From Naegleria gruberi (lineage: Eukaryota): a stretch of DNA of 64,000 bases. Location of the stretch: the NCBI GenBank assembly GCA_000004985.1, contig GG738869.1. One strand, written 5' to 3'. Below the pieces are notes generated by a model, which saw only the letters and a list, made by a program, of their open reading frames with translations, did not search any database and was not told the DNA's origin. The translations under genes and the position numbers were made by a program. Positions 13,337 through 62,614 of the stretch are shown here, piece by piece (within the stretch, counting starts at the first letter, position 1; each line of letters opens with the position of its first letter).

Positions 13337-13387
13337 ATATTGTAAAATTAAAGTTTTTCAATGTTTTAATTCCAATTATTTTTACAA

Positions 13388-13936
13388 TTATTTCTTATTT
13401 TTGATATTTTCACTCAACCATTCCAAACCTTCATTTATACCAATTCCATTCAGTGCAGATGTTTTAAATATTGTCCATGTTCTATTCTTTATCTTTGTTA
13501 AATTCAATTGTTCAGAAACTTCTTCAACACTCATAGCATTCTTGGCATCTTGTTTGTTAGCCATAATTAAAAGTATAGAGTCTTTCAACTCCTTTTCATC
13601 GAGCATTGCAAAAAGTTCTTCTTTAGCAATACCCATTCTTTCTCTATCACTTGAATCAACAACATAAATAATAGCATCTGTGTTTGCATAGTAACATCTC
13701 CAATATGGTCTAATCGATGTTTGACCTCCCAAGTCCCACACTTGGAATTTTATATTCTTGTATGTTATTGTTTCTACATTGAATCCGATTGTAGGTATTG
13801 TTGTAACAGCTTCTCCTACTTGTAATCGGTAGAGAATTGTTGTCTTACCAGCATTGTCTAATCCCAATATTAAAATACGCACTTCTTGTTCGCTATTAAA
13901 GAGTCCTCCAAATATTGAAGCAATTAAATTTCCCAT
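13388..13936 (-). CDS. arl1: ADP-ribosylation factor-like GTPase ARL1 (182 aa).
   Basis: [13 protein letters not shown] (myristoylation Gly2), G1 [19 protein letters not shown]. Near-colinear identity to ARL1 recalled from memory ([83 protein letters not shown]...IL...ANKQD). Confidence 0.9.
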
Positions 13937-14432
13937 GTTTTTGTTTTTTTAAGTTACAATATATTCCTAGTGATATGTATAGTCCTGATGATGATGAAGC
14001 AATAGTTTGTTATATATTATTCAGTCCAATTACTTTAAAAATCAACCTTCTCCTTTTTTTAAATTACTCTAATGTACACAACTTCCGTTATTATTAAAAT
14101 TTACAAGTACAGCTGCTGTCTACTATTGTATCCGAAAGATTAAGCTGTTATAACAAGTGGCAAGGTGTGTTTTAAAGCCAATTTTTTTATATTGAAAGGA
14201 ATTGATGAGTCATGAACAGATGATGATGACTTGGAGTTTATGAATAATAATAAAATATGACGTCATAATGGAAGGGAAATGGATTGTGATAAGATGATTC
14301 TCTTGATGGTAATGATAATAAGATAACCAAAAAGCACAGTATATTATTTTGATGAAGAATTTAAAAAACAATGATGAAGAAGTTTGCGTTAATTTCCAAA
14401 GAGCAAGAACAAAAAAATTCAACTAGTAAACT

Positions 14433-16149
14433 TTGAAAAAGCACACAATGTCCTCCCTATTGCCCAAAACACAGGAAGACCAACAAGCAACAATAGTAGT
14501 AGAATTGGAGGAGAAGAATAAATTGAAAAGAGTTTTGGATCAGGTAGAATCATCTTCATCAATAGAGGAAAAACCACTAGTCAGCAATAAGAAGAGAATT
14601 AAATTATTTGATGAAATTGAGAGTAAACAGGGTGTTTGTTGGCACTTTAGAAAGAAGGGATTTTGCAAATTGGGCTCTGAATGTAAATTCCGACATATTA
14701 AAGTGGATGATTATGGATTAATTATTGAAAATGATTTGTCATCTTCTAATAATTCATCATCTTTGGATAATAATTCAAATACAACATTAGGAAATAATTT
14801 AGAGGAACCTACATTATCATTAACAATAGAACCATCATCACTCTCTAATAGTACATCATTAAATGTTGAACAACCAAGGAGAAAACTTTGCTATTGGATT
14901 TCAAAGGCTAAAGAAACAAAATCAGCAACCTCAGCTTTACGAAGAACTTACGAAGAGAATGGATTTAATTTAATACTCTCCACTGATAATACCGAAACAG
15001 AGAATTATACAGCAGTTTTCTGGGGACATACCTTCCCTCATACTTCAGACCTTTGGAAAAAGTTGCCATCCTACACTTACATTAATCACTTCCCTAATTC
15101 ACACCACTTATCTAATAAGAGTTTGATGGCAATGAATTTTCAGGAAATATCTAAGGATAATTCCTCAATCAAATTCAAATCAGAGTTTATTCCTCATACA
15201 TTTTACTTTCCCTCACAAATTAATTTATTCTTCAATTATTTAAAGACTGAAAAGGATGATATTTGGATTATTAAACCACAAGGTTCAGGCGAAGGAAGAG
15301 GAATCAGATTATTTTCCAATTCTAAACAAATTTTACAGGAGGAATTTCCAACAATACCAACCTCAGAAATAGAGTCTGGGTTTGTCTCTGAGGAAACTTT
15401 GAAAAGGAAGGAGATTAGAAAACACAAGATTGTTGTTTGTAAATATGTAAGAAATCCATTGTTAATTAATGGTAAAAAATTCGATATGAGATTGTATGTT
15501 TTGGCTGTGGGATCCTTCGAAGGACCTTTCAACAACTCCACATAGAGCCTATCTCTATAAGGATGGTATTGTAAGATTGGCCAGCGAGGACTATACGGAA
15601 TCAGAGGAAACTCTCACTAATGCATTCATACACATTACTAACAATACTGTAAATGATAAGAAGAATCGTCCTCAACATGAAACAGCCAAGTCCCAATATG
15701 GATTCTTTTGTAATATGAATTTGAATGAATTGGAAGAATACTTCCAAAAGAACTCTTTGGATTACCAACTCTTCTGGGATAGACTCAAAAATCTAGTTTC
15801 AGAATCATTGAAAATGACAATATTTAACACTGAAAAACAAGATGATACATTCAAAGCCTGCTCATCGAAATGTTTTGAAATTTATGGATTTGATGTAATG
15901 ATAGACAAGAATTTGCAACCTTATTTATTGGAAGTTAACTCAATGCCTGACCTTTCTGCTGTCAGTAATACTAGCCACTTGGTATTAAACAAGGATTTCA
16001 CCATCAAATCTAAAATGCTTGTCAATGCCCTCAATCTCATTGGCATAACAATCGAGGATGAAAACACAGTCCTGAGCCGATTCATCAACATTTCAGATTA
16101 CAACACTGATGACTATCTCAATAATTTTGAGAAAATAATTTATCAATAA
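14433..16149 (+). CDS. Tubulin-tyrosine-ligase-like (TTL/TTLL family) protein with an N-terminal CCCH zinc finger (CWHFRKKGFCKLGSECKFRH). Apparent +/-1 frameshift around 15500..15545 inside the conserved RLYVL...YLYKDGIVRLAS block.
   Basis: Track ORFs 14433..15545 and 15496..16149 overlap by 50 nt in different frames. Together they give the TTL signature FDMRLYVLAVGS / AYLYKDGIVRLASEDYT and downstream ATP-grasp motifs (EVNSMPDLS). The only candidate GT..AG introns shift the frame wrongly. Confidence 0.65.
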
Positions 16150-16302
16150 TAACCAAACAATTTGAAATTTCAAATGAACCAAGACCTATTCAACTAGTAA
16201 TACCCAAAAGATATTTTACTCTCTGGTTTACGCTCTGAATCCAATCAGACATTCACTTTACAATGTCGCATCTGCACCAATTATTTTCCACTCATCAAAA
16301 AA

Positions 16303-17703
16303 ATGCACAAAATCAAAGGGCTAACATCTGCGTTGGGTGCAGTTTTGGTTTTATCCATCATCGCCTTCTTGAGTGTTCATGTTGATGCTTGTGGTCATCA
16401 TCGTCAACAACATCATAATGGATATCATCACCATCATCACCATCATCATGAAGAAAATCCAAAATCATCCGATAAGCCTGTATCTGCCCCACCAAAATCT
16501 GTTTGGGATAATTTGGAAAATATAATTACCAAGTCCATTGCTTCTCAAGCCTTCCCAGGAGCTGTCCTTTTGGTTGCTTCTAAAAATTCAGGAATAATTT
16601 ATTCTAATAGTTTTGGACATTTTACCTACAATCAACAATCATCACCAATGACCATCGGAAGTAAATTTGATATGGCATCCTGTACAAAGGTTTTGGCAAC
16701 AACATCTGCTACTGCATTGCTTTATCAAAAAGGATTGATTGGATTGAAGGATAGAGTTATTAAATATTATCCTGCATTTGCTGTTAATGGGAAGAGTGAA
16801 ATTATGATTGAAAATCTCTTATTGCACAATGCTGGTTTGCCACCAGATCCAAATCCTGGTTATTCTGCAACTCAATTTGGTTGTCCTGCTACTTCTGACT
16901 ATCATCCTCCTCAAGTTTTCACTTGTGCATCAAAGATTTTCAATTCTTGGTTGAATCAAGTTTTGGAAAATAAGCCAGGTCAAGTTTATGTCTACAGTGA
17001 TTTATCAATGATTTCAATGATGTACATTATTGGTAATGTTGTCAAGAAGAATATGGCCATGTTGGAAATGCATGAAGGAGATTTGAGAGTTGAATGTGTT
17101 CAACAAGTTGGTGGAATAGATGCTCCAGGTCATGAAACTTGCTATTATGAAGCTTTTGTTAATAAGCATGTTTTACAAAATCTCCAAATGACAAAGAGTG
17201 GATTCATTCCAAAACCAGAAGAAAAATCCAACATTCCACCAACCTGGTTGGATACTACCTATAGACACGAACTCATTCAAGGTTATGTCTCTGACGAAAA
17301 TGGTTATGCTTTGGGTGGTATTGCTGGTCATGCTGGGTTATTCACTCCAGTTGTTGACGTCTATCGTTTGATGAATGAACTCATGTTCAGAGCTAGAGGA
17401 AACTTTATCAATGAAACCACTTTCGACATGTTTACAACAGTTAAGAATACCACTCAAAGTTCAAGAGCTTTGGGATGGGATACTAATTCTCAAGGAAATG
17501 GAACATGTGGTAGTTTATCAAAGAAGACATTCTTGCATTTAGGATTCACTGGTACCCAAGTTTGTGGTGATCCAGATAGAAATTTATTCACCGTCTTTTT
17601 AACCAACAGAGTTTATCCAGATAAGGATAACAACAAGATGGCTCCAGTAAGAAATGCTGTCAACTCTGAAATTCAACGAGTATTCGATCAATATTATCAT
17701 TAA
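16303..17703 (+). CDS. Beta-lactamase-family serine hydrolase (466 aa). Signal peptide followed by a histidine-rich tract (HHNGYHHHHHHHHEE).
   Basis: SxxK active-site motif (MASCTKV) in the expected position of class-C beta-lactamase / DD-peptidase-like proteins. N-terminal hydrophobic leader. Confidence 0.75.
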   Translation: MHKIKGLTSALGAVLVLSIIAFLSVHVDACGHHRQQHHNGYHHHHHHHHEENPKSSDKPVSAPPKSVWDNLENIITKSIASQAFPGAVLLVASKNSGIIYSNSFGHFTYNQQSSPMTIGSKFDMASCTKVLATTSATALLYQKGLIGLKDRVIKYYPAFAVNGKSEIMIENLLLHNAGLPPDPNPGYSATQFGCPATSDYHPPQVFTCASKIFNSWLNQVLENKPGQVYVYSDLSMISMMYIIGNVVKKNMAMLEMHEGDLRVECVQQVGGIDAPGHETCYYEAFVNKHVLQNLQMTKSGFIPKPEEKSNIPPTWLDTTYRHELIQGYVSDENGYALGGIAGHAGLFTPVVDVYRLMNELMFRARGNFINETTFDMFTTVKNTTQSSRALGWDTNSQGNGTCGSLSKKTFLHLGFTGTQVCGDPDRNLFTVFLTNRVYPDKDNNKMAPVRNAVNSEIQRVFDQYYH

Positions 17704-47019: not shown

Positions 47020-47214
47020 TTTTTTTGTTGGTTAAAAAACGACAAACTTAACTACGAAAAATATTTGGCGGGAGAAATTGTTTGAATGCATCCACTGGCT
47101 TTTACAAGTATTGACAGCTGGAGCCAATCTTATCAAAGTTTATTATAAGAATAGATTATAACGAGAACATTAGAATAGGTGGATGAAATCAATAAAATTG
47201 CCTTATTAAATAAT

Positions 47215-48875
47215 TTATTGTTCCATTTCTTCATCCTCAGGATCTTCTGAAAGATTAGATGGTTTAAAGATTGAATAGCCGTCAAGACTTGTTGTAATAA
47301 GCACATTTTGGAATTTTGGATGCCAGTGCACTTCCTTAATGTCAACTTGACCCATGTGTTCGAATAACAATTGTGGTGGGATTTCATTTCCGATTTCTTT
47401 TTCAATTTCTTCTTGTTCGGCATCTCTTTCGAGTGAGAGATCCCAAATTGTCACCTTATCAGAATCAGAAGCAGCCAATAACGTTGATTCAATTGGATTC
47501 CATTCTATTGATGTAATAGAATTCTTGTGATAAATAAATTGGCCAACTGGTTTCATAGGACTGCTATCAGAACATTGTCTGACGTCCCAAATACGAATAA
47601 CACCATCATCGTCACCACTTGCAATAAAGTAACTTGTGAGAGGATTCCAAGAAATAACGTTAACATCTGCCTTTTCACTAGCTTCAAAACTGAGAGCATG
47701 CTTTCTATTCTTTTTTCTTGTATCCCAGAATTTAATAGTTCTATCGCATGAACATGATGCAAACACACTGTCTTCACTTGGTGAGAATTGAAGATCCTCA
47801 ACACTTCCTGTATGTCCAACAAATGGTTTATCATAAATTCTCTTCCAAGTATGAACTCCACTATTTGTTTGCATATCCATAACGTTAATTTCACCATTAC
47901 AATCACCAGTAGCAAGTCTACCTTCCACACACTTCGACCAGTCCATAGCAAAACCTTCAGTAGTATGGAAATCGAAAGTTTGAATTGCCTTCTTACTCTT
48001 TGTAATAGATTTTAAGGAACTGGCCATATTTTCTTGTCTTAAAACTTGTGACATTTGTGTCAAGTCATAAATGTGAACCTTAGAGTCCTCACACCAAAAA
48101 CCAACAATATTTCTATTTTGTGGCATTGCTCTTACTCTATTAACATTACCAGTGATTGGAATAGTTTGGTATTCAAGTGATGGTTCATCATCCAAATTTT
48201 CATTATCATCATCTTCATCTTCAACGTCACTTTCATCTGAATCGTAACGTGTTTTGTACATATCGTAAGCTTTAATCATGTAACAATTCTTTTGAGGAAC
48301 AGTTTCATCAGTTTGCACACCCACAACAAAATAACATGACAATGGATAATTCATAGTATCGAGTGGTTGTGAAACAATATCAAAACTCAAAGCAGGCCAT
48401 TCATTTCTGATTTTGTAATTAATTTCGTAGGCCTTATTTTGAAAAGTTAATTCGAATTCTCCATCATTGTAATTCTCTCCAGGACGATAAATATCGGCTT
48501 TGGAATTTATACCTTCTCTATACTTTTCGGCTTCTTCCTCCTCTTCAATATATTGTTTTTCACTGTTTTGTACTTTCAAATTTAATTCATCCATCTTTTG
48601 ACGAAGTTCGGTTTCATCTCCTTCAAATTCATATTCACCTTCATCTTCATCAACGTAGTCTTCCGAATTTTCATCGTATTCATCTTCATATGGATCGCCT
48701 CTACACAAAATTTAATCATCATCATCTATGAAACTAAAAAAACCTACGCTGCATATTCGGCTCTATCTTCATGGTCTGATTCTTCATCAGATGAGTCAAG
48801 ATGTCTGACCACTCTCGATTCATTCTTACTTCCAGAAAAAGTGGCTACTTTACTTCTCTTCTTTGCGCCTGGCAT
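47215..48875 (-). CDS. grwd1: Glutamate-rich WD-repeat protein GRWD1/Rrb1 (ribosome biogenesis, histone-binding WD40). Two exons (48748..48875 and 47215..48700) with a 47-nt GTAGGT..TGTAG intron.
   Basis: Acidic N-terminal region, then WD40 repeats with GRWD1-type motifs (HTGSVEDLQFSP, CDRTIKFWDTR, GDDDGVIRIWDVR, IEWNP, WHPK). Exon 1 (MPGAKKRSKVATFSG...EYA) joins in frame. Confidence 0.8.
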
Positions 48876-49004
48876 TTTTTATTGTCTTGTTGACTTCAAC
48901 AATTTTTTTCAAACTTTCATCAACAAGGCTTGTTGGAAAAGTGAAGTAAAATGTTGAACAAGAATAAAAATTTAAAAAAATTGAAAACACTTTAAATTCA
49001 AAAA
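48876..49004. promoter_or_regulatory. Compact bidirectional promoter region shared by divergent GRWD1 (-) and BRX1 (+), both ribosome-biogenesis factors.
   Basis: Only about 130 bp separate the two start codons. A- and T-rich tracts (tttttt, aaaaaaa) flank both ATGs. Inferred from gene arrangement only. Confidence 0.4.
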
Positions 49005-50012
49005 ATGGTGACTACCAATAACAACAAGGAAACATCGGTCGCTTCAACAGAGAAGAAGCCAGTTGCTGTGACTACCAACAAGATTAGACAAAAGTTAAAG
49101 CAAATGAACAAACAAACAAAATCAACGGTTACAAATAGTGATAGTACCAATTCTAAATTCCACAACAAACAAAGAACTTTGATTTTATCTTCACGAGGTA
49201 TTCATGCTAAACATAGACATTTATTGAAGGATCTTCGTACCTTGTTACCTCACACTAAAACCGAAAGTAAATTCTCTAAAGAAGGAATAGATGAAGGAGA
49301 TTTGGTTAAAAAACTTCACAGACTTCAAAAGATTGACCACATTGCTGCTGCTTTGAAATGTCCAAATATTTTGTACTTTGAAGTTGATAAGGAATCAGCA
49401 GATACAGAATTGTTTTTATGGATGTCAAAGACTTCAACTGGACCTTCTATGAGATTTAAAGTTGAAAATATCAGTACTATGAATGAATTGAATCTTATCG
49501 GAAATTGTTTGAAATATTCAAGACCATTATTACATTTCGACAAAACATTTGACAATATTGAAGGCGAAGATAAGCTTACTCATCTCCCATTGATTAAGGA
49601 ATTATTAACACAAACTTTCTCTACACCACTTAATCATCCAAAATCAAAACCATTCTTTGATCACATGTTTGCTTTCTATTATTTGGATGGAAGAGTTTGG
49701 TTCAGAAATTATCAAATTGTTACAAAACAATCAAGCCAAGGAGTTGCATTGACTGGTTCCCAAAAACATGAATATTCTCTTGTTGAAATTGGACCTAGAT
49801 TTGTTCTCAAGTTGACTAAGATTCTCAATGGTTCTTTCGATGGTAGAGTTATTTTCAATAGTGATTCACACTTTGTTTCAAAGGCTGAAGTTCAAAGATT
49901 GGAAAGCATTAAACTTGACCTCGACAAGCAAAAAAAGACTGAAAAACACAGAAAGTACTTAGAATTGAGAAAGCCAGCTGATGCTGATGAAGTGAGTTCT
50001 GTTTTCAATTAA
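49005..50012 (+). CDS. brx1: Ribosome biogenesis protein BRX1 (Brix domain), 335 aa.
   Basis: Brix-domain signature NKQRTLILSSRGI..RHLLKDLRTLLPH plus a sigma70-like C-terminal half (YSLVEIGPRFVLKL). Divergent from GRWD1 with only about 130 bp between start codons. Confidence 0.85.
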   Translation: MVTTNNNKETSVASTEKKPVAVTTNKIRQKLKQMNKQTKSTVTNSDSTNSKFHNKQRTLILSSRGIHAKHRHLLKDLRTLLPHTKTESKFSKEGIDEGDLVKKLHRLQKIDHIAAALKCPNILYFEVDKESADTELFLWMSKTSTGPSMRFKVENISTMNELNLIGNCLKYSRPLLHFDKTFDNIEGEDKLTHLPLIKELLTQTFSTPLNHPKSKPFFDHMFAFYYLDGRVWFRNYQIVTKQSSQGVALTGSQKHEYSLVEIGPRFVLKLTKILNGSFDGRVIFNSDSHFVSKAEVQRLESIKLDLDKQKKTEKHRKYLELRKPADADEVSSVFN

Positions 50013-51199
50013 AAGTTTTTTCAAAAAACTGCTGTACTGATTTTTTTCAATATTCCCTAAAGCTCCTCACCTAAAGCAATAATAAGGACTTTGTGAGCGG
50101 ATTTTGAATGATATTGGAGCAAAATTTGTCGTGCCCAACTCAATTTTCCATCACTACAAGATATTAATCACCGCGTTTCATTTTGCTTTTTGTAATAAAA
50201 GTTGTAAAGTTATGACGTTGGATAGCTTTATAGAAAAAAATACCATCACCAACTGACAAACCAAAAATTATTACCTCCCAACAATAATTAGTAACATCAC
50301 ATCCTACCTCGTCTCTTAGGTTGAGTTCTTTTATAAGAAAGTTCTTTTCATGTAGAGGTGTTTTATAATTATTCCAAAATTGAAGTAATTGTTTTACTAC
50401 GAGGTAAACTCACAACAAATTCTCAAGGAGATGATGTTGTGTTTTGGGATGTAATGTTTCTTATTATGTCAGAAAACATCTAGTAAGGAATGATTTATTT
50501 AGAAGAAGAACAACAACAATATTTAGAAGATATAAAACCATCACTGTGGGCTGATGATTTTCAGCAATAATTTAGAGAGACCAAACAAAAAATGATTTAA
50601 TATTGCAACATACAAACACACCACTTCAGCACCAACAGCAAGTAATCGTCTATGGAAAACTTCATCAAAGAGGGTCTCCTTTTTTTCATCACTAAATTCT
50701 ATTGATGAAGCATCATGACTATATCCGAGGATTGTGAAACAACAACCAACAGCAGGCTTTTACGATGATTCCGCACATTTGAATGAAGTATTAGTTTAGA
50801 TCAACTGGTACTGAAAAGGAGAAAAAGTATGCTGCTTGTTTGGCTCCTACCTCATCACTTGCTGTTGCTTTTTGTTATTTACTCCTGAATGCGTTGCTAT
50901 CTTATATATGATTGTGATGTGTTTAATTAATAAGTTGGAGTGGGAGCAGCAACAGGGTAATAAATGTAAGTACCTACGATTTATTTGAAATTTTACCTTA
51001 ATTCCATTTCATAATTGACACCATGGAACATTTAAGGTGAAATCTTCACCAAAATAATAATTTGAAATAGTCAGTTTTGGAAAATGATGTCAGAGAATTT
51101 GATATTTATGAGTGTAATCTTTTCACATTTCAATTTGGTTGGTGCTATACATTCCATCATCAAGACTTAAGGTCCTGCCATTAATTAGAAACTGTGATG

Positions 51200-52110
51200 C
51201 AAGAAATAGTAACTGTTGTTGATGGAACTGTTTTAGAAGATTTAGCAAGTATTAATGTTGTCTACACAACAGCAACTGTTGCCATCTAAATCCTTACAAC
51301 TCTGAAGGTGAATTCATTTTGAAATATGATCCTCCAAGGGAAACTATGTTCATTCTCACTGATTAAAAGCTGATTTTACCGTTTGATTTGAGTGTAGACA
51401 TTTACAATAGATGATTCTCTTACACATACAGAGGTGAAAGAGATGCACTGATGATGTTCTTTCAACTCTTCAGTTTTGACTCAAGTCAAATTGTCTATTC
51501 AGTGGAAGGTATGGATGAGTTATCTATATAGTAGACACTTATAACTTTAGAATTAGAAAGCTATCAATTACCAATAAGACTATCATATTTATTACTTATC
51601 GGTGGACAAGAAGAAGGAAAACTTTGGAAATGAATATTACTGATACTCTTGCTCAACCAACAGGACTTGCTTTTTTCAGAATTCTGAACATGCTTCAATT
51701 AACACCATTCCATATACATTGCCTACAAGTTTTACATCAAGATTGTCAATGATCTTACAATAATTGCAAGATCTAGTGCTCCACCAACTCCAGGTCTGAG
51801 TTAGCAGCTCCTGTTCCTACTCTCAATACAACTATTGCCCCAACAAGTATTGCAGTTGGTGAGGATGGAAAAGTAACACACCCTCAAAATGTTAACACCT
51901 GCTCCAACCTGAACAATTTTTGTCGTGGCTAATACTGGATAATATCGGTCCTATTGAGGATGATGGCTTGGCTATTAGTTCTTCATTTATTACTGTTTCC
52001 TCTGAGGAGATTATTCTTGCTGATTGTATGAACAATAGAATTAGAAAGATTTGTGGAGAGGGAGTCATTACTACCAGTGGCTAATGCCTATGACTAAGAG
52101 AGATGTTTGA
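51200..52110 (+). pseudogene. Decayed NHL-repeat gene fragments, for example LADCMNNRIRKICGEGVITTSG and PTIAPTSIAVGEDGKVTHPQNVNTC, interrupted by stops and frameshifts.
   Basis: NHL-like motifs (aD..NnRIRKI...G.ITT.aG) recur in several frames. No continuous ORF. Related in motif to the intact NHL gene at 62615..64000. Confidence 0.3.
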
Positions 52111-53329
52111 AAGTAATTGACCTAACCTTTCATTTTGCGTATTGTATGGAATGAAATGTCTCTAGTCAAAGAAGTGTTTTTGAGAATTGTGAATAGTGCT
52201 TCAGTGATCGTTTGGGCTCTTGTTGATGGTAAGGAAATGAGTAGAGATATCAAAAAGATTGCATATGATTTTGCCTTCTTTACTATTGATGTTTCACAAG
52301 TTTGCCAAGGAATTGTAGTCATTCAAGTTATGTTAATATTCGTAAAAAAATTGAGAAAATGACTCTTTGCCACCTTGCTGATTTTCGAAGTGGTTTCTCA
52401 GCACCAAACTTTCACATCATCATCTAAACATCAATTTAGTAGTAATATAGTAATTTTTATTGGAGTATTTTCTTCATTATTTTGGAATTTATCTTCATGA
52501 TGAAAAATCACAAGTTGATGAATCATCAGAACATTATTGTTGTTTTCCATCAATATAATAATTTTATTTGTGGAAATTAATATATAGTAATGAAATTACA
52601 CTAAAATCTTCATCACCGTTGGATTTAATGGAAAAGTTGGAAAACTATTAATGTGGCATTGTTGGAAATGGACAATAGTATGATATAAAACTTTGTTTGA
52701 TCACTTTTCATCAAGTATTGATAGAGATAGGTACATGTGAATTTTGAAAACTAACATGAACATTACTCCATGTGTACTTCAACCAACTTGAATACAATCT
52801 TATAGAACTACTAGTACTATTTAAATCACGAATAAACACCATATTCATCATCAAATATTCGTCATCTTGTCGATTACGGAATTTCATTCCACCAGTGTTG
52901 ATTCGGGCCCAACAACAAAATATTAACAATAAAACAATTACCAATACTATTGTTTACATGTTTTATGTTAAATGATCGTAACGATCATCAAGATCATCCT
53001 GTTTTTATTGCATTTCTCATGATAATCAGAAATGTCACAGAGAGTGCCACATATCCATTCTACTCTCAATAAATAATAGTTCCTTTTTACACATGTGCAA
53101 CTTTGCTTATAAACATGATGAATTCATATATTAAAGACTCCAAAGGCTAGTATAATCCTCAATGTGATGTCTAATAATACCATTACAACTTAAAGATAAT
53201 TATCTTATAATTTCATTGAATATGAATTGAATTTGTAAATTGACATAAAACAGTGGTTTATTGTAATTTGGTTTAAAAATAGCTTTCTAAAGCACCTTGT
53301 TGTATCTTGTTGTGACATTTACTAAAAAA

Positions 53330-54385
53330 ATGGCAAAAGCACCAGCACAAATTGTTATGGAGAACAAATTGCGGAAATCATTAACATTAAAACAATTCAT
53401 AGAATTATCCAAGTCTACAAGAAAAAGGAGATTAGATAATCTTCGTAAGAAATTCTTTAATTCAAATTTATTTAAATATTCTTGGAGTAAATGGCGAGAT
53501 GCTATTATCGGAACAAACAATTCAATCCAATATTTATTAAAACAAAGAAAAAACATAAAAAATAATTTATCAACATCTACAATTGATACAATAATTCAAC
53601 AATTAAAAGAGGAAAGGAACAAATCTACAAAAAAAGAATCCAAAAAAGATTTTGAAAAAAAAATTAATAATTTATTACAATCTAAAAATTTATTCAAAAT
53701 CAATGTTAATTTGATATTATGTAGTAATTTGGCTAATACTATTCAACTAATGTTTTTAAGAAATATACTTCCCGAAAATACCACTACTGAGGTAACCAAT
53801 ATATTGGATAAAATTAACCAAAGAAGATCAAAGGAAAATTATTATATAGGAAGTTGGGGAAAGAGTTCTTCTTTTCTATTTAAAACTAATGACACTATTT
53901 TTAATGAATTATCTTCTCAATTTATTAAAATTATTAATTTATTAAAAAATTATGTTTTGGAAATATTGAAATTTGGAAATAACAAGATGAGGAAATTCTT
54001 AGAAAAATACAATAGTAGTGATTTTTTATCAATTTATCCGACAGTGTGTTTTAATTTTTTGGATAAATCTGTAGATGAAAATAGAATTCTACATATTCAT
54101 CCGGATAAGGAAGACACTGGAACTAGTCTAATTTTTTACTTTGGAAAGTTTAAAGGTGGAGCAATCTCATTTCCTGAATTAAATTTTAAGCTTATGGTTC
54201 AATCAGCAGATGTTTTATTGTTTGATGGTAAGAATAATTTACATGCTGTTGAATCACTTCATGGTAAAGATGATGTTAGATATTCCGTTGTATTCTTTGC
54301 TCATAAAGCAGACTTGGGTAAAACTAGTTATCCCATGAATAGAGGAGAAGTTATGAAAGGTATTAAGAATAAAATCAATAATTAA
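53330..54385 (+). CDS. Tet/JBP-family 2-oxoglutarate/Fe(II)-dependent dioxygenase (5-methylcytosine oxidase type). Small single-domain NgTet1-like form, about 350 aa.
   Basis: C-terminal core: HIHPDKEDTGTSLIFYFGKFKGGAISFPELNFKLMVQSADVLLFDGKNNLHAVESLHGKDDVRYSVVFFAHK. It aligns motif-for-motif with my recollection of the Naegleria NgTet1 core: HxD iron ligands, SL.FYFG.F, VQ..DVL.F.G, the second His (HAV/HVV), and R..V.FAHK for 2OG binding. The N-terminal half is extremely K/N/I-rich. Track ORF 53297..54385; first ATG at 53330. Confidence 0.75.
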   Translation: MAKAPAQIVMENKLRKSLTLKQFIELSKSTRKRRLDNLRKKFFNSNLFKYSWSKWRDAIIGTNNSIQYLLKQRKNIKNNLSTSTIDTIIQQLKEERNKSTKKESKKDFEKKINNLLQSKNLFKINVNLILCSNLANTIQLMFLRNILPENTTTEVTNILDKINQRRSKENYYIGSWGKSSSFLFKTNDTIFNELSSQFIKIINLLKNYVLEILKFGNNKMRKFLEKYNSSDFLSIYPTVCFNFLDKSVDENRILHIHPDKEDTGTSLIFYFGKFKGGAISFPELNFKLMVQSADVLLFDGKNNLHAVESLHGKDDVRYSVVFFAHKADLGKTSYPMNRGEVMKGIKNKINN

Positions 54386-56134
54386 ATTTTAAATAATTAT
54401 TTAAATAATTTTTATAAATAATTTAATTGTATTAAAAAAATGTCTCCACACTTTAACCTCGAATTTTATTCGAGAAGCACAACAGTAATAGATGAAAGCA
54501 CTCTCGGTGGGCTTGATTTGATAATAACACACTTATACATCCTCTTGTAGGAGTATAATTAGTGTTGTTGTTGTGAGTTGAGGACGTTATTTTAATTCCT
54601 TTTCCCTTCTTCCAAAGTTTCCTGTTCAAACTTTGTTGCTTCCGTAAATCATATTATCAACAGGAAAGATCATTTAACTGCGAGCATCGTTGTTGGATAC
54701 AAACTATGCATTGACAATTCTTTTAATTATCTTGAATGTTTGGTAATTGATGGCAATGTTCATATAATCAACTCTCACCAAAGAAGAATTCTAAAATATA
54801 TCTAATGATCAGGCTGTTGATTTTCAACAACATACAGGTATTCGGAGCTATTGTAAAATAATTGTTTTACTTTGATGATTCAAATGGTTTTCAACAACTA
54901 ACATAATTCTTATCCATCTTGCAAAAAAAGAGGATACCATGACAGCAATCAACTTATATCAATATTGAAAAATCATTAGGAAATTATTCAGAAGTAGCAT
55001 GCATTGTAATTGTTGCGTTCAAAACATTTCTCAACATTAAATTCTTTCTCCACAATCAAACCCTGCTCAGCAACAATCAGAAGAGGAGCCATCTTTTAAT
55101 CTAACTTGCCATCTATGTTGAAGGAATGTACATTTAGAAATCAGTGATGTTCACCCTGAATGTGATGGATCTTTTTCTGGCTACTTGTATTGGTTGCTCC
55201 AGTAATTGCACATATGGAGGCTCTTTTAATGTTTCCAATAACCAAACTATGCTGGTGATTCCACTCCCAACCAAAACCCTATCAAAAAGAATTCTTCTAT
55301 ACAACTAGTATGAGTCATAGAGCTGTTGTCTTTCGTCCACTTTTAATAATAATATATGGTATGCTTTTGTTCAGGCTGTAATGTTTCGAGTGCAATTCAA
55401 CACCAGTGTTTTCATTCCAACCATGATTGGATCATATCTCCAAAGAGGACACTGGGTATTATTACTATTTAAAGTTGGCTACTAATAGTGAAATCTACTT
55501 GTTCGATCCAATGTTGGATGCCAAGTTCACTAGTGCTGAGCTGGCTATTGATATTTCAGATATCCTTTTTGTTTGTTGTCACTACCACCCTATTATTCAA
55601 CTTCTAGGTTTACGTTTCAAGAATCATGGGTTTATTTGGTTTAAGATGTTATGTTTCAGTATTCACGTAAATATGATGCAAGGAGGACACTTATTGCTGC
55701 TGTGGTGGTAATAGTAGCATTACCTTAGGTGTTGTAGTGTATACTACTTCATCATCTATTAATACTTATTCTCCAATTACTCAAACAAAGACAATTTCAA
55801 TCAACATTCACTATGTCAGTGCTTAATTATTCCAAGTTGTACTAAAACAACATCACTAACAAGGTGCTAAACAACTATGCTTTCCATTTCAACGCAGAGG
55901 CATATGTCTTGCGTTTGGGGCAGAGATTTAGTGCTTGAATAGTGGTTAAACAACAATGGATGGGCATTTTGGCAACTGGTTTTCAGTAGCTTCACATTCA
56001 TGTTGTTTGACTTAACAAACACTTTGGCTGCAATCTATTCACTCTTTATCCATCATTTATTCATCATTTACACCAATACTGTATTGTTTACATTTTGTAT
56101 GCTAGCTGGTTATTATTATTAATCATTAAAAAAA

Positions 56135-58864
56135 ATGGGAGTAGCGACACTTTTTACCAAAGCTGACGTTTTAAATTCCCACAACATCAAAAAGCAAAAA
56201 GAAACCAAACGTCCTGCCTTTGAAGGTGATAATGATAGATCGATTGTGGCGGCAATTAAAAAAACAAAACAACAAGCATCCAACGACTTTGAGTATTACA
56301 AGACATACAAAGAAACAGATTTCACTAATGAACAGAATTTTAGTTCAATAATTTATCAGATAATGCTAGTTCTATTGCCCTATTTTGTTTTTAAAATAAC
56401 CTCAGGATTATTAGATTTTGAATCAATATTATTATACTTTCTAGTCTCCACAAAAAAAGGCAAAGATTTATTAGCACAAGCCAATCTATATAGTACTGAG
56501 GGTGTTTCTTGGTGTGAAGCAATAGTATTTAAAGCAATTTGTAATGCAGATATAAGTATAGGGAGTTATGGTAGATTTATTGGTTGTTTAGAAGAATCTA
56601 GTAAATCAGACACATCCAGAAATAAGAAAAAGGCAAGACATTTTTTACCATCACTCTCTACAATAACAAAATATTCAAGTAGTTTACATCAAGTATTAGA
56701 TATCAATCATGCTGCAGATAGCGAAGGACTTTATTGGAGAATATTTTGTTCATCCATAGAACTTAATGACAGGACATTCAGATATGCAACGCTTCAAAAT
56801 GCAGAATTGTTTTTATTCTCATTTATTCGCTACCATGAAATGATCATAGGAGAATATATCTTCTTTGTAAAGATAAGATGTACTGTTGATGGTTCACCTT
56901 TAGAGGGAGCCTGTACTGCGTATGATATTGTATTAATTCATCCCAAGATAGATCCATTTTGTGCTCGTAATTATATTTCTGTTATTATTGCCGAGCCTAA
57001 AGAGGAAATAGCGTTCAAATTAAACATCTGGGATTTCTCTCGCCAGTTAATGCGTATCACACAGTTGAAATACTCTGTACCTAATGAAGAAACAAGAATT
57101 ATTCCTGTAAAATTTATTACCAACCCTGATAAGGGCGCCTTTAACAAAATTATAGATGTGGAAAAGGTAACGCCAATTTGTGATCCTATTTTTAATTTGG
57201 TAAATCTTTATTGCCTATTATCAATGATTTTCAATACAGATAATTCCTTAATACTACCTCTAATTCCAACAATAAGAGGAGATTGTAATAATGATAGCAA
57301 CAAAGCAAAAGGACAAGCAAATCTAGCAAAGGTTATGGAAATTAAAAAGATTATGCCTGAAACGTTACCTTATTACCACAACATTCCAACAAAATCCCAA
57401 ATATTTACTGATTTTCAATTAGATGAAGATTCTATTTTTTTAATTGAAAAATTTATCATTAAGAAACCTCAAACAGATTATTTATGTTGTATGTTTTGTT
57501 ATTTAACTAAACAAACAAAAAGAATAGCATTGAAGTATCCTGATTTGTGTACATGGAAATGGTACAGATCAAACGAAAGCTCAAGTAATGCTTTAGGCTG
57601 GCCTTTTAAAAGTTTTTCATGGTGTCTTTCGCATGATATAAGAGCCTGTGGTCAGAATCTTATTGAAGAAGAGGTGGGACAAATTGAAGAAGATAGACAA
57701 TATTTTGCCAAATTATTCAGTTCTGAATCTCCAATTGCCTCTTTGAAATGTGGTTCTAAAAAGCTAATTAATGAACAACTAGATGCCAACCTTGTTTCTG
57801 AATTTGAGTTTTGTCAATGGAGTGTATTTGAATTAAAGGTGAAAGAAGAAAAAAAGAAAAACAAAACAGGAACAGAGCTACGAACTAGTTCAGTTAAACT
57901 AATCTATGATCAGATTTTGTTTAAACAAATAGACAAAATTATAATGACAATAGATGTTTGGTATCCTCATTGGCTCACATATCGAGAAAACAAACAATTA
58001 CAGGTTTGTCAATCCCTTAACAATAATCAATCATTTGAAGATTGTACAAATGAAGAACACTCCAAGCGAGGAACATACAAACCAAAAAACTATGAACATA
58101 TATGGAAAGCTCTTCAAAAAACATACATTACTCTTCGCCAACCAAAATCTAAATGGTTAGAATGGAAGAAAACTGGATATCAAGAGCCATTGCTAATATT
58201 TAAGAATTTAAATAAGGTTTGGATAAAAGATATTTTAGGAAGAATATCAGAATATTTACACATTCATCAACATGCAGATATTGTGTTCGATGAAGTAGAA
58301 GAATCATTCGTAACAACATCAAACATTGGATCTGAATCTAAAAATTCTTTAAGAAGGAAGCGTCATGTTTCATTTGGAGTTAATGGTGGTTTAAGACATC
58401 CTTGTGATGATTCTTTATATTATGACAGCAAAAGAATTCTTAATGAATTGAAGATCCTTGCTGAGACTCCTAATATTATTGCAAGACAAGATGAGATCAA
58501 AAGAAAACAAGTTTCCGAAAAAGAAAAACTCACACAACCAAAAAAGAAAAGAAAATCTGAAACTACTACACAACCCAATCCAATAAGCTCAACCAATTCC
58601 TCAATTAATTATATCAATCCTTCCCTATTACAACCTCTACTTCCAGATAATTTTAATTCAATTACATTACACAATCAACACTCCTTCTCACCTCCTATAT
58701 ATATTCATCCTCTTCAACTCCAACCTCCACTAACTAACAATTTAACATTTTCTCAATTCAATCCTTCTCAAAATTCCAATAACCAACCAACATCTCCTTA
58801 CCAACCATCATCTCCATTTTCATTCTTTTCATCCTCCAATCCATCACCAAACTCCTTTTTATAA
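56135..58864 (+). CDS. Orphan 909-aa protein immediately downstream of the Tet/JBP gene. Cys/His-containing central region (CCMFCYLTKQ...CTWKWY...SWCLSHD...C), then a Q/N/P/S-rich low-complexity C-terminus. Unknown function.
   Basis: Single uninterrupted ORF in an otherwise ORF-free 9-kb stretch. No recognisable catalytic motif by eye. Confidence 0.45.
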   Translation: MGVATLFTKADVLNSHNIKKQKETKRPAFEGDNDRSIVAAIKKTKQQASNDFEYYKTYKETDFTNEQNFSSIIYQIMLVLLPYFVFKITSGLLDFESILLYFLVSTKKGKDLLAQANLYSTEGVSWCEAIVFKAICNADISIGSYGRFIGCLEESSKSDTSRNKKKARHFLPSLSTITKYSSSLHQVLDINHAADSEGLYWRIFCSSIELNDRTFRYATLQNAELFLFSFIRYHEMIIGEYIFFVKIRCTVDGSPLEGACTAYDIVLIHPKIDPFCARNYISVIIAEPKEEIAFKLNIWDFSRQLMRITQLKYSVPNEETRIIPVKFITNPDKGAFNKIIDVEKVTPICDPIFNLVNLYCLLSMIFNTDNSLILPLIPTIRGDCNNDSNKAKGQANLAKVMEIKKIMPETLPYYHNIPTKSQIFTDFQLDEDSIFLIEKFIIKKPQTDYLCCMFCYLTKQTKRIALKYPDLCTWKWYRSNESSSNALGWPFKSFSWCLSHDIRACGQNLIEEEVGQIEEDRQYFAKLFSSESPIASLKCGSKKLINEQLDANLVSEFEFCQWSVFELKVKEEKKKNKTGTELRTSSVKLIYDQILFKQIDKIIMTIDVWYPHWLTYRENKQLQVCQSLNNNQSFEDCTNEEHSKRGTYKPKNYEHIWKALQKTYITLRQPKSKWLEWKKTGYQEPLLIFKNLNKVWIKDILGRISEYLHIHQHADIVFDEVEESFVTTSNIGSESKNSLRRKRHVSFGVNGGLRHPCDDSLYYDSKRILNELKILAETPNIIARQDEIKRKQVSEKEKLTQPKKKRKSETTTQPNPISSTNSSINYINPSLLQPLLPDNFNSITLHNQHSFSPPIYIHPLQLQPPLTNNLTFSQFNPSQNSNNQPTSPYQPSSPFSFFSSSNPSPNSFL

Positions 58865-58897
58865 AATAAAAGGAATAATTTAAATTATAATAATTGT

Positions 58898-59659
58898 TTA
58901 ATATTTATTCCATTTAACAGATTCATCAAGCATAGAGCAGAAATAATCAAATTCAATTCTAATCATCTTCTCTTCAGGTTTGTAAATTAATTTAAATTGA
59001 TTAATTCCAAATTTCCATAAAATACCATCATGCTCCCATTTAAATGCATACCACTTATCACTAAACAAAGGAGGAAGGCTATAATTTCCAGCAAACAACC
59101 AATGATATGTTATCTTTGGAACTATTCTTCCTTCCCTTGCAATGCCACCCTCAATCAACATCTCTTCTTTTAAAATGCTATATGGTTTTGCCTTTTGTAT
59201 TTGATAATCAAAGAATAGCTTTGCTTCGTGATCATCTGTTACAGAAACATAATGTTGATGATGCCACTTGACATTATGGGTTGTATCTGGCTGAGCATTT
59301 CTAATAACTACCTCCTCAATAGTTCTCGGAAGTACCTTTAGGTATCTTGTTGCATAATATTCATCAGAATATTTTTCATCCATTATCTCACGCAGTGTTA
59401 TTGTTGGTAGGGAAGTATCAAAAAAGTATTCAAGTTGTTGTCTTTTCTCTAATGGTATGTTCACTTTCTTACTCTCTTCACTGCCTTCAAGAATGTTTGT
59501 TACTTGGCGTTTAGCTGTTTTCAAATCATCAACCTTCTCTACAACAAAACGTATTTTGTTTGTATTGTTATTCTTCTCCAACGATTTATTCATAGCTACC
59601 CTCTTACTTTTGCTCAACCTGTATACTTCAAACGTTACTTCTGTTTTGTTGGTGACCAT
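58898..59659 (-). CDS. Hypothetical 253-aa globular protein, unknown family.
   Basis: Single ORF with balanced composition (for example WYAFKWEHDGILWKFGINQFKLIYKPEEKMIRIEFDY). Stop is only about 34 bp from the stop of the 909-aa ORF, in convergent orientation. Confidence 0.45.
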   Translation of the reverse strand: MVTNKTEVTFEVYRLSKSKRVAMNKSLEKNNNTNKIRFVVEKVDDLKTAKRQVTNILEGSEESKKVNIPLEKRQQLEYFFDTSLPTITLREIMDEKYSDEYYATRYLKVLPRTIEEVVIRNAQPDTTHNVKWHHQHYVSVTDDHEAKLFFDYQIQKAKPYSILKEEMLIEGGIAREGRIVPKITYHWLFAGNYSLPPLFSDKWYAFKWEHDGILWKFGINQFKLIYKPEEKMIRIEFDYFCSMLDESVKWNKY

Positions 59660-60045
59660 AGAAAATACTTGTTTGTTTTGTTTTGATTTTGTTGTTGCTC
59701 ATGTTGTTGTTGATATGTGGTGTTGTTGATGTTATTGTATTTTTTTTTACGTGAGTTTACAAATTGAAAAACAAGCAAGAATGAAACGCGGTGAAATTAC
59801 GATCAGGATTTGAAAAAATATCAAAAAAGACGTTACATAACAAACAAACCTCGTAACCGATCATCAACACTTGTACAACTTGACTCTTAACAAGTATTGT
59901 TGTTGTGGGAAGATTTTAATCTTCGTAACAAACTTCATCATCATCCGACTTTTTTAAAAACTCTCTTATCATCATCAACAAGAAGTGATTTTGTACTAGT
60001 ATTGTATTTTGGTAGTTTAATTATAATACAAGAAGATTAACCATC

Positions 60046-62412
60046 ATGGGAGGAGAAACTGAACCATCTAACGAAGCTCTAATATCACCAATTACACCTT
60101 TTTCAACCATTATTCCAAATACCTATTCTCAACAACAAGCTAATTTTGATTCAAGTACAATATCCGAAGAGAGGAATGATGGTGATAGTATCAATAGAGT
60201 TACCTCTCTTCCACCATTACCATCATTAGACTCTCCCAAGAAAAAACCTCTTCCATCCATTAACACTCTTTCTCCACCAAGAAAGACTTCAAAACCACTC
60301 CCACCAAGACCAACACAAACCTCTACGGAAATTAATAATTTAGTATTTTCTCATCCCTCTGCTATGAATACAACTTATTCTTCCGATAATTTTACCACCA
60401 ACAATCCATCCTATCCATCCACACCTCCAAAAGTTTTGTTCCGAGATTATACTGAGAATAATTTAGAGCCAGCTTCCAGTATTAATACATATAATTACGA
60501 GTTTGCAAATATAAACCCTGAACCAATATCACATATATTTACAAATGTAGATGGTAGTATGCACCGTAGTTCCTCCTTTGCGGGTACTTTGGTCAACAGA
60601 CGTTCAATTCCTTCGAATGTTGGTTTAAACTCTATACAGGAGGAAGCTATGATTCGTACTCAAAGTTATGACAAATTTAAATTGGACGAATTAAAGAAAC
60701 AAGGATCGACTGCTGCTGGCAATAATAACGGAAATAATAATAATAAGAGACATAAGAAAATATTTTATAATACTGAATTTTTGGAGAAATGCGGATTTAG
60801 TAATAATTCTATTGAACAGCAACAAATCAAACAACTGAAACAGGATGAACTTCAAGAGGAACAGATTCGTAGAATGCATTCTGAACAAGAACAAAAAATG
60901 AAGCAAATGGAATTAGAAGAGTTGGCTCTCGTCAACCGAACTTTACAACAAGAGTTCAGTTTTTCAGAATTTTTAACTTCTCAACCAAAATACTCATGGA
61001 GTGACTTTTTTGCCCATAACAAGAATGCATTTAGTTTAATCAGAGCTATGGCATCTCAATGGTCATGGGGAGAAATGACCTTGGGACTCGAATATTTTGC
61101 AAGAAGTAAGGGCAAGATGAAACGTGATTTTACTCAATTCAAATTAGAGTCAGATTTAGAGAGACTGCCAGCTTCAAACGTTGAGGTTTGGAGACATTAT
61201 GCACGTTTAACCTATCAAGTTTTTAGAGACTCGATAGAGGACATACCAAGGAACACCCGTTTGGAACTTCACAAAATTATTGCCTACGATAGAACTCAAC
61301 AAGCCATGAGACCTGGATATTTTCTGTGTGTGGACGACTATACAAAATCGGTTCTGGTTATTTTTAGAGGAACAAAATCATTTAGTGATATTCTGACTGA
61401 TTTGCACTGCTCCTCTATTCGTTACAAACATGGATATTGTCACAAAGGAATTTTGACAGCTGCTCAATATTTTGATTCGAACAAATTCATCAAGGAAGTG
61501 GTTAAAAGAACTCTTGAGCATCATCCAGGATACAAATTAAGGTTGCTGGGTCATAGCTTGGGTGGTGGTACTGCAGCTATATTGTCCACTATGTGGAAGA
61601 AAGACTTTCCTGATATTCACTGTTATGCATTTGCATGTCCACCAGTTTTATCACAAATTTTAGCTGACGAATGTGCTGACTATGTTACAAGTTTTGTAAA
61701 TGGTGATGATTTTGTAACAAGATTATCAATGACAGCTGTTCACGAATTGAGAAAGGAAGTACAGAACTATCCTTGGAAGGAGGAAATGATGAAAGATATT
61801 CAAAACTCAACACTTGGAAAGTTTGCAGCTGGAGTTAAAAATTATGCATCTGGTTTATTTAGTGGATTATTTGGAGGTAGTAAGAAGGCAGATGTAGTAG
61901 AGCCAATCATAGAAGTTAAAAAGGATGTAATCAAGACAGAACCTATCACCACAAACATTACAACAATAAGTACAGGAGAAGATGCCAAAAGAATTGAGTA
62001 CGATCAATCTAATTCATCGATGGAGGATCAAGATATTTCCAGTTCAAGTAATGCTGATGATGTGCAGAGTACAGATGAGCCTCTTTCCTCAATCTCACAA
62101 AGCACTAATGATGATGTTTTCCCTTCTTCAGGCTCAACTGTTAAAAGAAAAGTTTCCAAAAAACCAAAGAGGAACCCAGATTCTCCACTGATTATTAATG
62201 ATTATGAAAATCTTGTTGTGACTCTCTTCCCAGCTGGTTGTGTCTATCAAATTAGAAATATTGATGACACTGTGTACATAAAAAAGGCCAATAAGGAAGA
62301 CATTACTTCCATAATTTTGAGTGACAGCTACAAGGAAGATCACAGAATGATCAACTATTTATGTAATCTTGATGCTTACAATCCAATAACAACCGAGAGT
62401 AGTGTAATATAA
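60046..62412 (+). CDS. Class-3 (fungal-type) lipase family protein with sn-1 diacylglycerol-lipase-like core (788 aa). Ser/Pro/Thr-rich N-terminal region.
   Basis: Lipase_3 core: YFLCVDDYTKSVLVIFRGTKSFSDILTDL followed by the nucleophile elbow GHSLGGGTAAIL, and an Asp-containing NGDDFVTRL. Confidence 0.7.
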   Translation: MGGETEPSNEALISPITPFSTIIPNTYSQQQANFDSSTISEERNDGDSINRVTSLPPLPSLDSPKKKPLPSINTLSPPRKTSKPLPPRPTQTSTEINNLVFSHPSAMNTTYSSDNFTTNNPSYPSTPPKVLFRDYTENNLEPASSINTYNYEFANINPEPISHIFTNVDGSMHRSSSFAGTLVNRRSIPSNVGLNSIQEEAMIRTQSYDKFKLDELKKQGSTAAGNNNGNNNNKRHKKIFYNTEFLEKCGFSNNSIEQQQIKQLKQDELQEEQIRRMHSEQEQKMKQMELEELALVNRTLQQEFSFSEFLTSQPKYSWSDFFAHNKNAFSLIRAMASQWSWGEMTLGLEYFARSKGKMKRDFTQFKLESDLERLPASNVEVWRHYARLTYQVFRDSIEDIPRNTRLELHKIIAYDRTQQAMRPGYFLCVDDYTKSVLVIFRGTKSFSDILTDLHCSSIRYKHGYCHKGILTAAQYFDSNKFIKEVVKRTLEHHPGYKLRLLGHSLGGGTAAILSTMWKKDFPDIHCYAFACPPVLSQILADECADYVTSFVNGDDFVTRLSMTAVHELRKEVQNYPWKEEMMKDIQNSTLGKFAAGVKNYASGLFSGLFGGSKKADVVEPIIEVKKDVIKTEPITTNITTISTGEDAKRIEYDQSNSSMEDQDISSSSNADDVQSTDEPLSSISQSTNDDVFPSSGSTVKRKVSKKPKRNPDSPLIINDYENLVVTLFPAGCVYQIRNIDDTVYIKKANKEDITSIILSDSYKEDHRMINYLCNLDAYNPITTESSVI

Positions 62413-62614
62413 TGTAAATAAAATCTCGATTTTTGACCATTAAGGAATTTAATCATTTCACAACAAACAATTAGAAAGCACAATTTTCTTTTTTTGTATT
62501 GGAAAGGGAGCAAGCAATTAATTGAACTCAATTCGGAAATATTGAGCTATAATTTTAGAATGGATGTTGTATTGGTTGTGGTTGTATGGTTGCTAAAATA
62601 ATCAATCCTACAAA

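Follow-up and report, generated by a model that had tools for sequence, protein, structure and literature searches.

The stretch of DNA examined here, referred to as the window, comprises 64,000 nucleotides of the Naegleria gruberi genome (assembly GCA_000004985.1, contig GG738869.1), and the subject of this report is the gene-poor island within it that separates BRX1 from a class-3 lipase gene and contains a gene for a Tet/JBP dioxygenase. The island is probably a single copy of a class II DNA transposon, autonomous in appearance, equipped with a putative DDE transposase of 909 amino acids (aa) and a 253-aa partner protein, and carrying the Tet gene as cargo. At least one of the N. gruberi Tet genes therefore travels on a transposon, which represents a previously undescribed, Tet-carrying lineage resembling the CMCT clade. 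An earlier note on this DNA, made from the letters alone, had supposed a mobile-element remnant or accessory locus. The mobile-element idea is upheld by terminal inverted repeats (TIRs), by a clean empty site in a 99%-identical relative, and by the occurrence of the right end at other loci; "remnant" is not appropriate, since the insertion is polymorphic and both the TIRs and the three open reading frames (ORFs) have stayed intact.

The empty site was found on a contig (L006) of the ENA metagenome ERZ929261/ERR1078381, which was reached via the 90%-cluster mate of the lipase and contains WD40, Brix, and lipase genes. Its identity to the window is 99.0% over positions 47150-50168 and 98.6% over positions 59794-62502, and these two segments directly abut (50168/59794). 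The junction reads AAGATATTAAT/AAATTACGATC, with zero bases gained or missing and no footprint, so that the occupied site TTAAT/CACCGCG...CGCGGTG/AAATT is matched by the empty site TTAAT/AAATT. Because this junction falls exactly at the ends of the TIRs, a unit of 9,625 bp is precisely absent from the relative, in which BRX1 and the lipase gene are adjacent. The insertion is thus polymorphic between near-identical strains. The limits first proposed for the island (50040-59000) must be corrected to 50169-59793, which places the 253-aa gene inside it.

To locate the TIRs, the two border zones of the window were scanned for inverted pairs beginning with CA. The 14-mer CACCGCGTTTCATT starts at 50169 and its reverse complement ends at 59793, such that the inverted repeats, sought at the suggestion of the earlier note, lie exactly at the edges of the island. 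This perfect match (14/14) occurred in 0 of 50 shuffles. It extends to approximately 22 nt with one indel, giving imperfect TIRs of about 22-25 nt with a gapped local score of 22 (shuffles: mean 7.4, standard deviation 1.5, maximum 14). The element ends in 5'-CACCGCG...CGCGGTG-3', and the heptamer CACCGCG is found at these two sites only in 64 kb. Generic repeat finding with a minimum length of 16 nt did not pick up the TIRs of the window, and a scan of metagenomes with the TIR pattern gave one chance match that was otherwise dissimilar to the window. An alternative TIR pair, CAACAACAAAAT at 52910/59697, was dropped, this 12-mer being present five times in the window.

Two further contigs from the same sample, L007 and L008, contain the right part of the element at 99.2-99.3% identity up to ...CGCGGTG, beyond which they run into two different, unrelated flanks. 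The coding frames of L007 are open across the part covered, that is, the complete 253-aa gene and residues 314-909 of the 909-aa protein. In contig L010, sequence corresponding to 55862-56030 (87% identical) is joined to that of 57942-58924, with identities of 85-96% overall; most of the 909-aa ORF is gone, and this is an older, internally deleted copy of the element. Mobility is established by three observations taken together: the empty site, the other flanks of the right end, and the deletion derivative. Each of the properties that the earlier note had held to speak against a mobile element, namely a single copy, conserved synteny, and borders free of repeats, is contradicted by these data. 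Just one fully bounded copy has been seen and it has no target-site duplication, as would suit an ordinary strain-specific indel or accessory segment, for instance a 9.6-kb deletion in the metagenome strain with no transposition involved. We consider this highly improbable, since the breakpoints match the 14/14-nt inverted repeat (5'-CAC) to the base, the empty-site junction is devoid of microhomology, the right terminus is joined to two more unrelated flanks in the same sample, and the diverged, internally deleted L010 exists as well.

The flank of L008 (Logan ERR1078381_2038231, positions 1-498), a locus outside the 64-kb window, has the insertion 267 nt from a gene weakly matching DUF2505 (SRPBCC-like; E=3.5e-4, below the cut-off). 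The features of the element and its surroundings are listed in Table 1.

Table 1. Features of the transposon-like element and its neighbourhood, in positions of the window
Feature	Position	Strand	Remarks
Whole mobile element, 9,625 bp	50169..59793	+	Defined by empty-site contig L006 and TIRs at both ends
Left TIR, CACCGCGTTTCATTTTGCTTTTTG	50169..50192	+	Inverted match to right end
Right TIR, reverse complement CACCGCGTTTCATTCTTGCTTGTTT	59769..59793	-	Inverted match; ...CGCGGTG is the exact breakpoint in L007 and L008
Left host flank, ...ATATTAAT/	50161..50168		With the right flank, forms the uninterrupted empty site
Right host flank, /AAATTACG	59794..59801		
Tet/JBP 2-oxoglutarate (2OG)-Fe(II) dioxygenase, NAEGRDRAFT_79850	53330..54385	+	Open frame from 53297, first ATG at 53330
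Putative transposase, 909 aa, NAEGRDRAFT_67858 / EFC44211.1	56135..58864	+	
Conserved accessory gene, 253 aa	58898..59659	-	Convergent with the 909-aa gene, 33 nt away
Decayed NHL-repeat coding fragments	51250..52085	+	Frameshifts and stops; stitched translation matches Pfam NHL
Internal ORF-free spacer	54386..56134	.	L010 shares part
BRX1	49005-50012		Pfam Brix, E=1.4e-41; left neighbour of the island
Class-3 lipase, NAEGRDRAFT_58119	60046-62412		Right neighbour of the island

In sequence the Tet ORF agrees fully (100%) with N. gruberi NAEGRDRAFT_79850, and it matches NgTet1 (PDB 4LT5/5CG8) with E=3e-21. In the alignment the H-P-D of the query pairs with the H-K-D of NgTet1, and the distal His and the 2OG-binding Arg are also aligned; with the Pfam Tet_JBP profile the ORF scores 23.6 bits, under the cut-off of 34.9. 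On the strength of the aligned residues, the Tet of the element is predicted to be catalytically complete. The public model of 211 aa represents 58% of an uninterrupted ORF of 351-362 aa, and the Willaertia magna counterpart has 357 aa; the annotation of NAEGRDRAFT_79850 is probably truncated at the N-terminus. We found no report in the literature tying Tet genes to a transposon in Naegleria or any heterolobosean.

A HMMER scan of 1.84 billion representatives revealed seven relatives of the 909-aa protein. Four are from named species, all of them Heterolobosea (N. fowleri, N. lovaniensis, and W. magna), and three are environmental fragments. The family alignment contains the conserved motifs VDGxP, PDxxAxxK, CxxC, YPxLxxWKWxR, CxAH, DYxHIxxxH, and (S/T)E(S/G), which in the protein of the window correspond to D252, D332, C452-x2-C455, C497/H500, H709-x3-H713, and E734. 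Of these, D252, D332, and E734 are candidate catalytic residues, and C452/C455 together with H709/H713 are candidates for zinc binding. The order D332, C452-x2-C455, H709-x3-H713, E734 is kept in those homologues from N. lovaniensis, W. magna, and the environment that cover the region. Eight sequences yielded a poor AlphaFold model (mean predicted local distance difference test, pLDDT, of 48); in it D252 ends a strand, D332 lies just past a strand, and E734 is helical, within a strand-strand-strand-helix-strand pattern. The fold matches of this model are to Transib/RAG1. So modelled, the 909-aa protein has the look of a DDE transposase with an RNase-H fold, similar in kind to RAG1, Transib, and CACTA. 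The earlier suggestion that this ORF be searched for a transposase or RNase-H-like fold is in part rewarded: DDE-like motifs and a Transib/RAG1 resemblance are present in a poor model, while sequence matches are wanting and the Foldseek comparison with the PDB is not significant (best E=0.04). We observed that the 90% identity cluster of the 909-aa protein is represented by an unrelated 54-aa "phage integrase" fragment from a metagenome-assembled genome, a clustering artefact which hid NAEGRDRAFT_67858 from the word-indexed homology search. With the family alignment as query that search likewise gave no match, within a list of 8,000 candidates that low-complexity words had probably filled.

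The 253-aa gene is missing from the NCBI/UniProt protein set of N. gruberi, and its exact sequence is present only in the ENA/Logan assemblies of ERR1078381. Homologues directly adjoin the 909-like gene in N. lovaniensis and in three W. magna loci, from which we conclude that it is a conserved partner; of the four heterolobosean species looked at, three have the two genes together. The placement of the partner gene differs: it is upstream of the 909-like gene and on the same strand in W. magna and N. lovaniensis, and convergent in N. gruberi. A low-confidence model of the protein is mixed alpha/beta and not recognizably a kelch propeller. As a guess, it might be a cofactor or a DNA-binding subunit.

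A related arrangement is found in W. magna. In the 22-kb locus L003 (JBEGDK010000009.1), CACGGGGTGGT lies at 9004, and its reverse complement has a single further occurrence, ending at 17037. The 8,034-bp stretch thus delimited (9004-17037) contains a 253-like gene, a 909-like gene, a Tet gene whose catalytic residues are intact, as in the N. gruberi copy, and further ORFs. Its termini are CACGGGG...CCCCGTG, and the flanking duplication is at most "TT". The left 5.2 kb, where the 253-like and 909-like genes lie, is found again in a second W. magna locus, L005, with an identity of 98.5-99%, and the unit shared by the two has a sharp left boundary exactly at CACGGGG, beginning CACGGGGTGGTCTTCG. 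L005 is a truncated copy without Tet, and L004 is a third, degenerate W. magna copy. The right boundary of the W. magna element, as drawn from the repeat, is only moderately supported.

Three more ORFs (150, 286, and 86 aa) occupy L003 12602-14148; they have no Pfam match and are dissimilar to the filler of the N. gruberi element, which indicates that the internal cargo differs between the genera. Outside the W. magna element, some 1.5 kb away (L003 18543-21763), are two adjacent genes with SprT-like domains, one of which also has Chromo and HMG-box domains; together they may make up a further mobile or chromatin-related unit.

In N. lovaniensis (PYSW02000061.1; L002 10001-13765) the public model C9374_012882, of 1159 aa, joins two separate ORFs, a predicted intron splicing a 242-aa ORF, homologous to the 253-aa protein, to a 994-aa ORF, and appears to be chimeric. 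In the 994-aa ORF two Zn2Cys6 clusters precede the transposase-like region; this derivative may have been domesticated as a DNA-binding protein. The N. fowleri gene FDP41_009065 (VFQX01000066.1; L001 9812-11485) is split into two ORFs and has no 253-like neighbour; about 190 residues at the N-terminus are missing, as is the C-terminal E motif. Most probably a decayed copy has here been annotated as an intron-containing gene. The surroundings of these two homologues, and of that in W. magna L004, yielded no TIRs.

A number of observations weigh against the interpretation of the island as a transposon moved by its own 909-aa protein. The main anomaly is the lack of a target-site duplication: comparison of the occupied and empty sites gives 0 bp, where CMCT elements make 2-5 bp, and the duplications that the earlier note had expected at the edges are therefore absent. 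Among nine members of the 909-aa family no Pfam family was matched at E values up to 10, except Zn_clus in one, and the family profile found no sequence match in the PDB at the same limit. The transposase assignment derives from motifs, from predicted topology, and from the fold matches of a weak model. Differences between copies within the 909-aa ORF number six nonsynonymous and four synonymous, counts by which selection is not demonstrated. There is no second copy of the element within the 64-kb window. In W. magna the right TIR is short and its gapped score (13) does not surpass the highest shuffle score (14); the 5.2 kb common to L003 and L005 do not include the Tet gene. Finally, some members of the family may have been domesticated or be dead, since for the N. 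lovaniensis and N. fowleri homologues neither TIRs nor, within 10 kb, a Tet gene could be detected.

Some of these observations also bear on a live alternative, in which the element is mobile without the 909-aa protein being responsible for its movement. The element would then have been moved in trans or by duplication-free recombination, and the 909-aa/253-aa pair would be cargo or a host-type pair, serving for example in transcriptional regulation. The absence of a target-site duplication is compatible with this, as is the want of a sequence match between the 909-aa protein and any transposase family. The N. lovaniensis homologue, with two Zn2Cys6 clusters and no TIRs, is what a transcription factor or domesticated gene might look like, and the Chlamydomonas element DNA-1_cRei likewise has a Tet gene and no recognizable transposase. 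We rate this alternative as improbable.

The low GC content of the island and its orphan genes might also suggest an endogenized giant-virus fragment or some other horizontally acquired block, and the Tet family has ultimately been traced to phages (PMC12730594). On the other hand, IMG/VR contains no relatives of the 909-aa or Tet proteins, viral hallmark domains are absent, and wherever a relative of the 909-aa or 253-aa protein has a species assigned to it, it is a chromosomal gene of Heterolobosea, the three others being environmental. Such an origin has only the slightest chance of being correct.

The surroundings of the element agree in most respects with the earlier description. The interval between BRX1 and the lipase gene has only three ORFs of at least 150 aa, those for Tet/JBP, the 909-aa protein, and the 253-aa protein, whereas the rest of the window has 36, or about one per 1.8 kb. 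It also contains the two longest ORF-free tracts of the window, at 50010-53290 (3,281 nt) and 54383-56122 (1,740 nt), the next being 1,565 nt; the island is thus gene-poor, as had been claimed. It was further described as extra AT-rich. It is indeed the 9.6-kb stretch of lowest GC content, with 31.3% against 33.6% in the remaining window and a minimum of 32.5% in other stretches of this length; the difference is modest, and most of it is accounted for by the Tet gene (25.2%, compared with 31.8-38.4% in host ORFs). The lipase gene NAEGRDRAFT_58119 and the 909-aa ORF NAEGRDRAFT_67858 are located on the same 747-kb N. gruberi scaffold. In the contig index, exact sequence look-ups with BRX1, the 909-aa ORF, the annotated Tet, and the Tet read from its TTG start gave no match. 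Neither an Rfam family nor a tRNA was detected between 49.5 and 60.5 kb.

The filler of the element amounts to approximately 5 kb in total. The decayed NHL-repeat fragments reported at 51.2-52.1 kb can be recovered in part: a translation hand-stitched over three frames (51.25-52.08 kb) passes the Pfam NHL cut-off (26.2 bits against 20; E=7e-6, two repeats) and in the PDB also matches NHLRC2 and a teneurin-like protein, in both cases in their NHL regions, while plain six-frame Pfam scans of both ORF-free tracts, including the unstitched NHL region, gave no match. Stitching by eye introduces a bias; the best matches nonetheless fall within single unstitched fragments, and the identity of this debris is only moderately secure. 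The stretch has no intact ORF and no similarity to the W. magna element, and is either a captured fragment of a host gene or a dead passenger gene. The second tract, described as a 1.7-kb spacer full of short broken reading frames, proved to be free of ORFs over 1,740 nt. Between 54386 and 56134 there is no ORF of 100 aa or more, no Pfam match, no RNA family, and no detectable homology; part of the spacer belongs to the element, because L010 retains 55862-56030. On the minus strand at 55137-55304 a short open frame (...ILFDRVLVGSGITSIVWLLE...) resembles the GxGxxG start of a Rossmann dinucleotide-binding domain; it has no Pfam support and may be pseudogene debris or chance.

If the island is a transposon as proposed, the 909-aa protein would cut at the TIRs and reinsert the element, in this case without duplicating the target. 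By analogy with the Tet-carrying transposons of fungi and Chlamydomonas, the Tet protein of the element might oxidize 5-methylcytosine on or around the element and in this way counter silencing based on methylation. A bolder proposition is that the element belongs to an active, undescribed RAG1/Transib-like lineage of superfamily rank confined to Heterolobosea, in which a transposase and an obligatory 253-aa partner are arranged tail-to-tail like RAG1/RAG2, insertion proceeds without duplication, and the Tet cargo predates the split between Naegleria and Willaertia. We think this unlikely, if conceivable. Were it true, the eight-member NgTet family would stem largely from the amplification of transposons, and the association between a RAG1-like transposase and a partner gene would be far older and more widespread than animals.

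The Tet enzymes of Naegleria are in wide use as a model and, NgTet1 chiefly, serve as the structural model for Tet chemistry. At least one NgTet paralogue is the cargo of a transposon and varies in presence between near-identical strains, which provides a concrete mechanism for the expansion of Tet genes beyond fungi and green algae and speaks for a repeated recruitment of Tet by mobile elements as a way of evading silencing by cytosine methylation. The putative transposase family is restricted to Heterolobosea and RAG1/Transib-like in appearance; its small partner gene and its apparently duplication-free integration bear on the evolution of RAG-like recombinases. In practical terms, the exact TIR sequences allow the whole element family to be mined, and three annotation problems have been flagged: the truncated Tet model, the unannotated 253-aa gene, and the chimeric N. 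lovaniensis model.

Among known systems, the closest comparison is with the CMCT clade, which comprises EnSpm/CACTA, Mirage, Chapaev, Transib, Plavaka, ESTA, Lanisha, and RAG1 and is characterized by a signature of D, D, C(2)C, H(3-4)H, and E, by 5'-CA..TG-3' termini, and by duplications of 2-5 bp (PMC12730594). Plavaka is now assigned to this clade, which already includes the Tet-carrying fungal lineages EnSpm/CACTA-like, ESTA, and PlavakaB (Kojima 2025, PMC12730594). The 909-aa protein matches the order of the CMCT motifs, and the CACCGCG...CGCGGTG ends of the element fit the 5'-CA..TG-3' termini; at the single insertion whose empty site is known, the duplication measures 0 bp, and sequence homology to the clade was not found. 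For these last two reasons the element is not filed under Transib, EnSpm, or any other named CMCT superfamily.

The fungal TET+ CMCT transposons resemble the Naegleria element in being of TIR type, with 5'-CA(C)..(G)TG-3' termini and Tet/JBP cargo, and some have a third protein. They differ in making duplications of 2-3 bp or TA instead of 0 bp, and the Naegleria element is distinguished from them by its heterolobosean host, its NgTet-type Tet, and its conserved 253-aa partner. Nor does the 909-aa protein have sequence similarity to the Pfam or PDB entries of the fungal CMCT transposases. In ESTA too, similarity to RAG1 is seen at the level of profile or structure only.

With respect to Transib and RAG1/RAG1L (ProtoRAG), the 909-aa protein has no sequence match in Pfam or the PDB, and the duplication is 0 bp rather than 5 bp. 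The CxxC lies ~19 residues past the second D in RAG1 and ~120 past it in the 909-aa protein. The heptamers CACCGCG and CACGGGG only partly resemble the CACGGTG-like consensus, and the low-confidence model of the 253-aa partner is not recognizably a kelch propeller of the kind expected in a RAG1/RAG2-like pair.

Iyer et al. are said to have described in 2014 Tet/JBP genes linked to, and dispersed with, KDZ (Kyakuja/Dileera/Zisupton) transposons, often together with extra proteins, and the earlier note, pointing to KDZ/Plavaka, had thought an analogous association worth testing here. This stands in part, in that Tet lies inside a TIR-bounded element resembling the CMCT clade, to which Plavaka belongs. 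Membership of KDZ was rejected, the 909-aa family having no match to a Pfam KDZ or CxC domain at E values up to 10 and the N-terminus of the 909-aa protein being without the Cys-cluster modules of KDZ. Kyakuja elements share 5'-CA..TG-3' termini with the Naegleria element and differ in having 7-bp duplications and no TIRs.

Outside the fungi, the Chlamydomonas element DNA-1_cRei, which carries CMD1, is 18.4 kb in length and has 67-bp TIRs, 8-bp duplications, and no recognizable transposase; Helitron2 elements also carry Tet (bioRxiv 10.1101/2022.06.16.496473). DNA-1_cRei is like the Naegleria element in that a functionally studied Tet/JBP gene is the cargo of a multi-gene, TIR-bounded, strain-polymorphic transposon in a non-fungal host, and unlike it in that the latter has a candidate transposase and no duplication. 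A precedent for insertion of the latter kind exists in the Spy elements of the PIF/Harbinger-ISL2EU group, eukaryotic transposons of DDE type which insert without target-site duplication and whose transposase group is unrelated. Tet-carrying DNA transposons were thus known already from fungi and Chlamydomonas; new are the heterolobosean host, a transposase family without a Pfam profile, a conserved partner gene, and duplication-free insertion.

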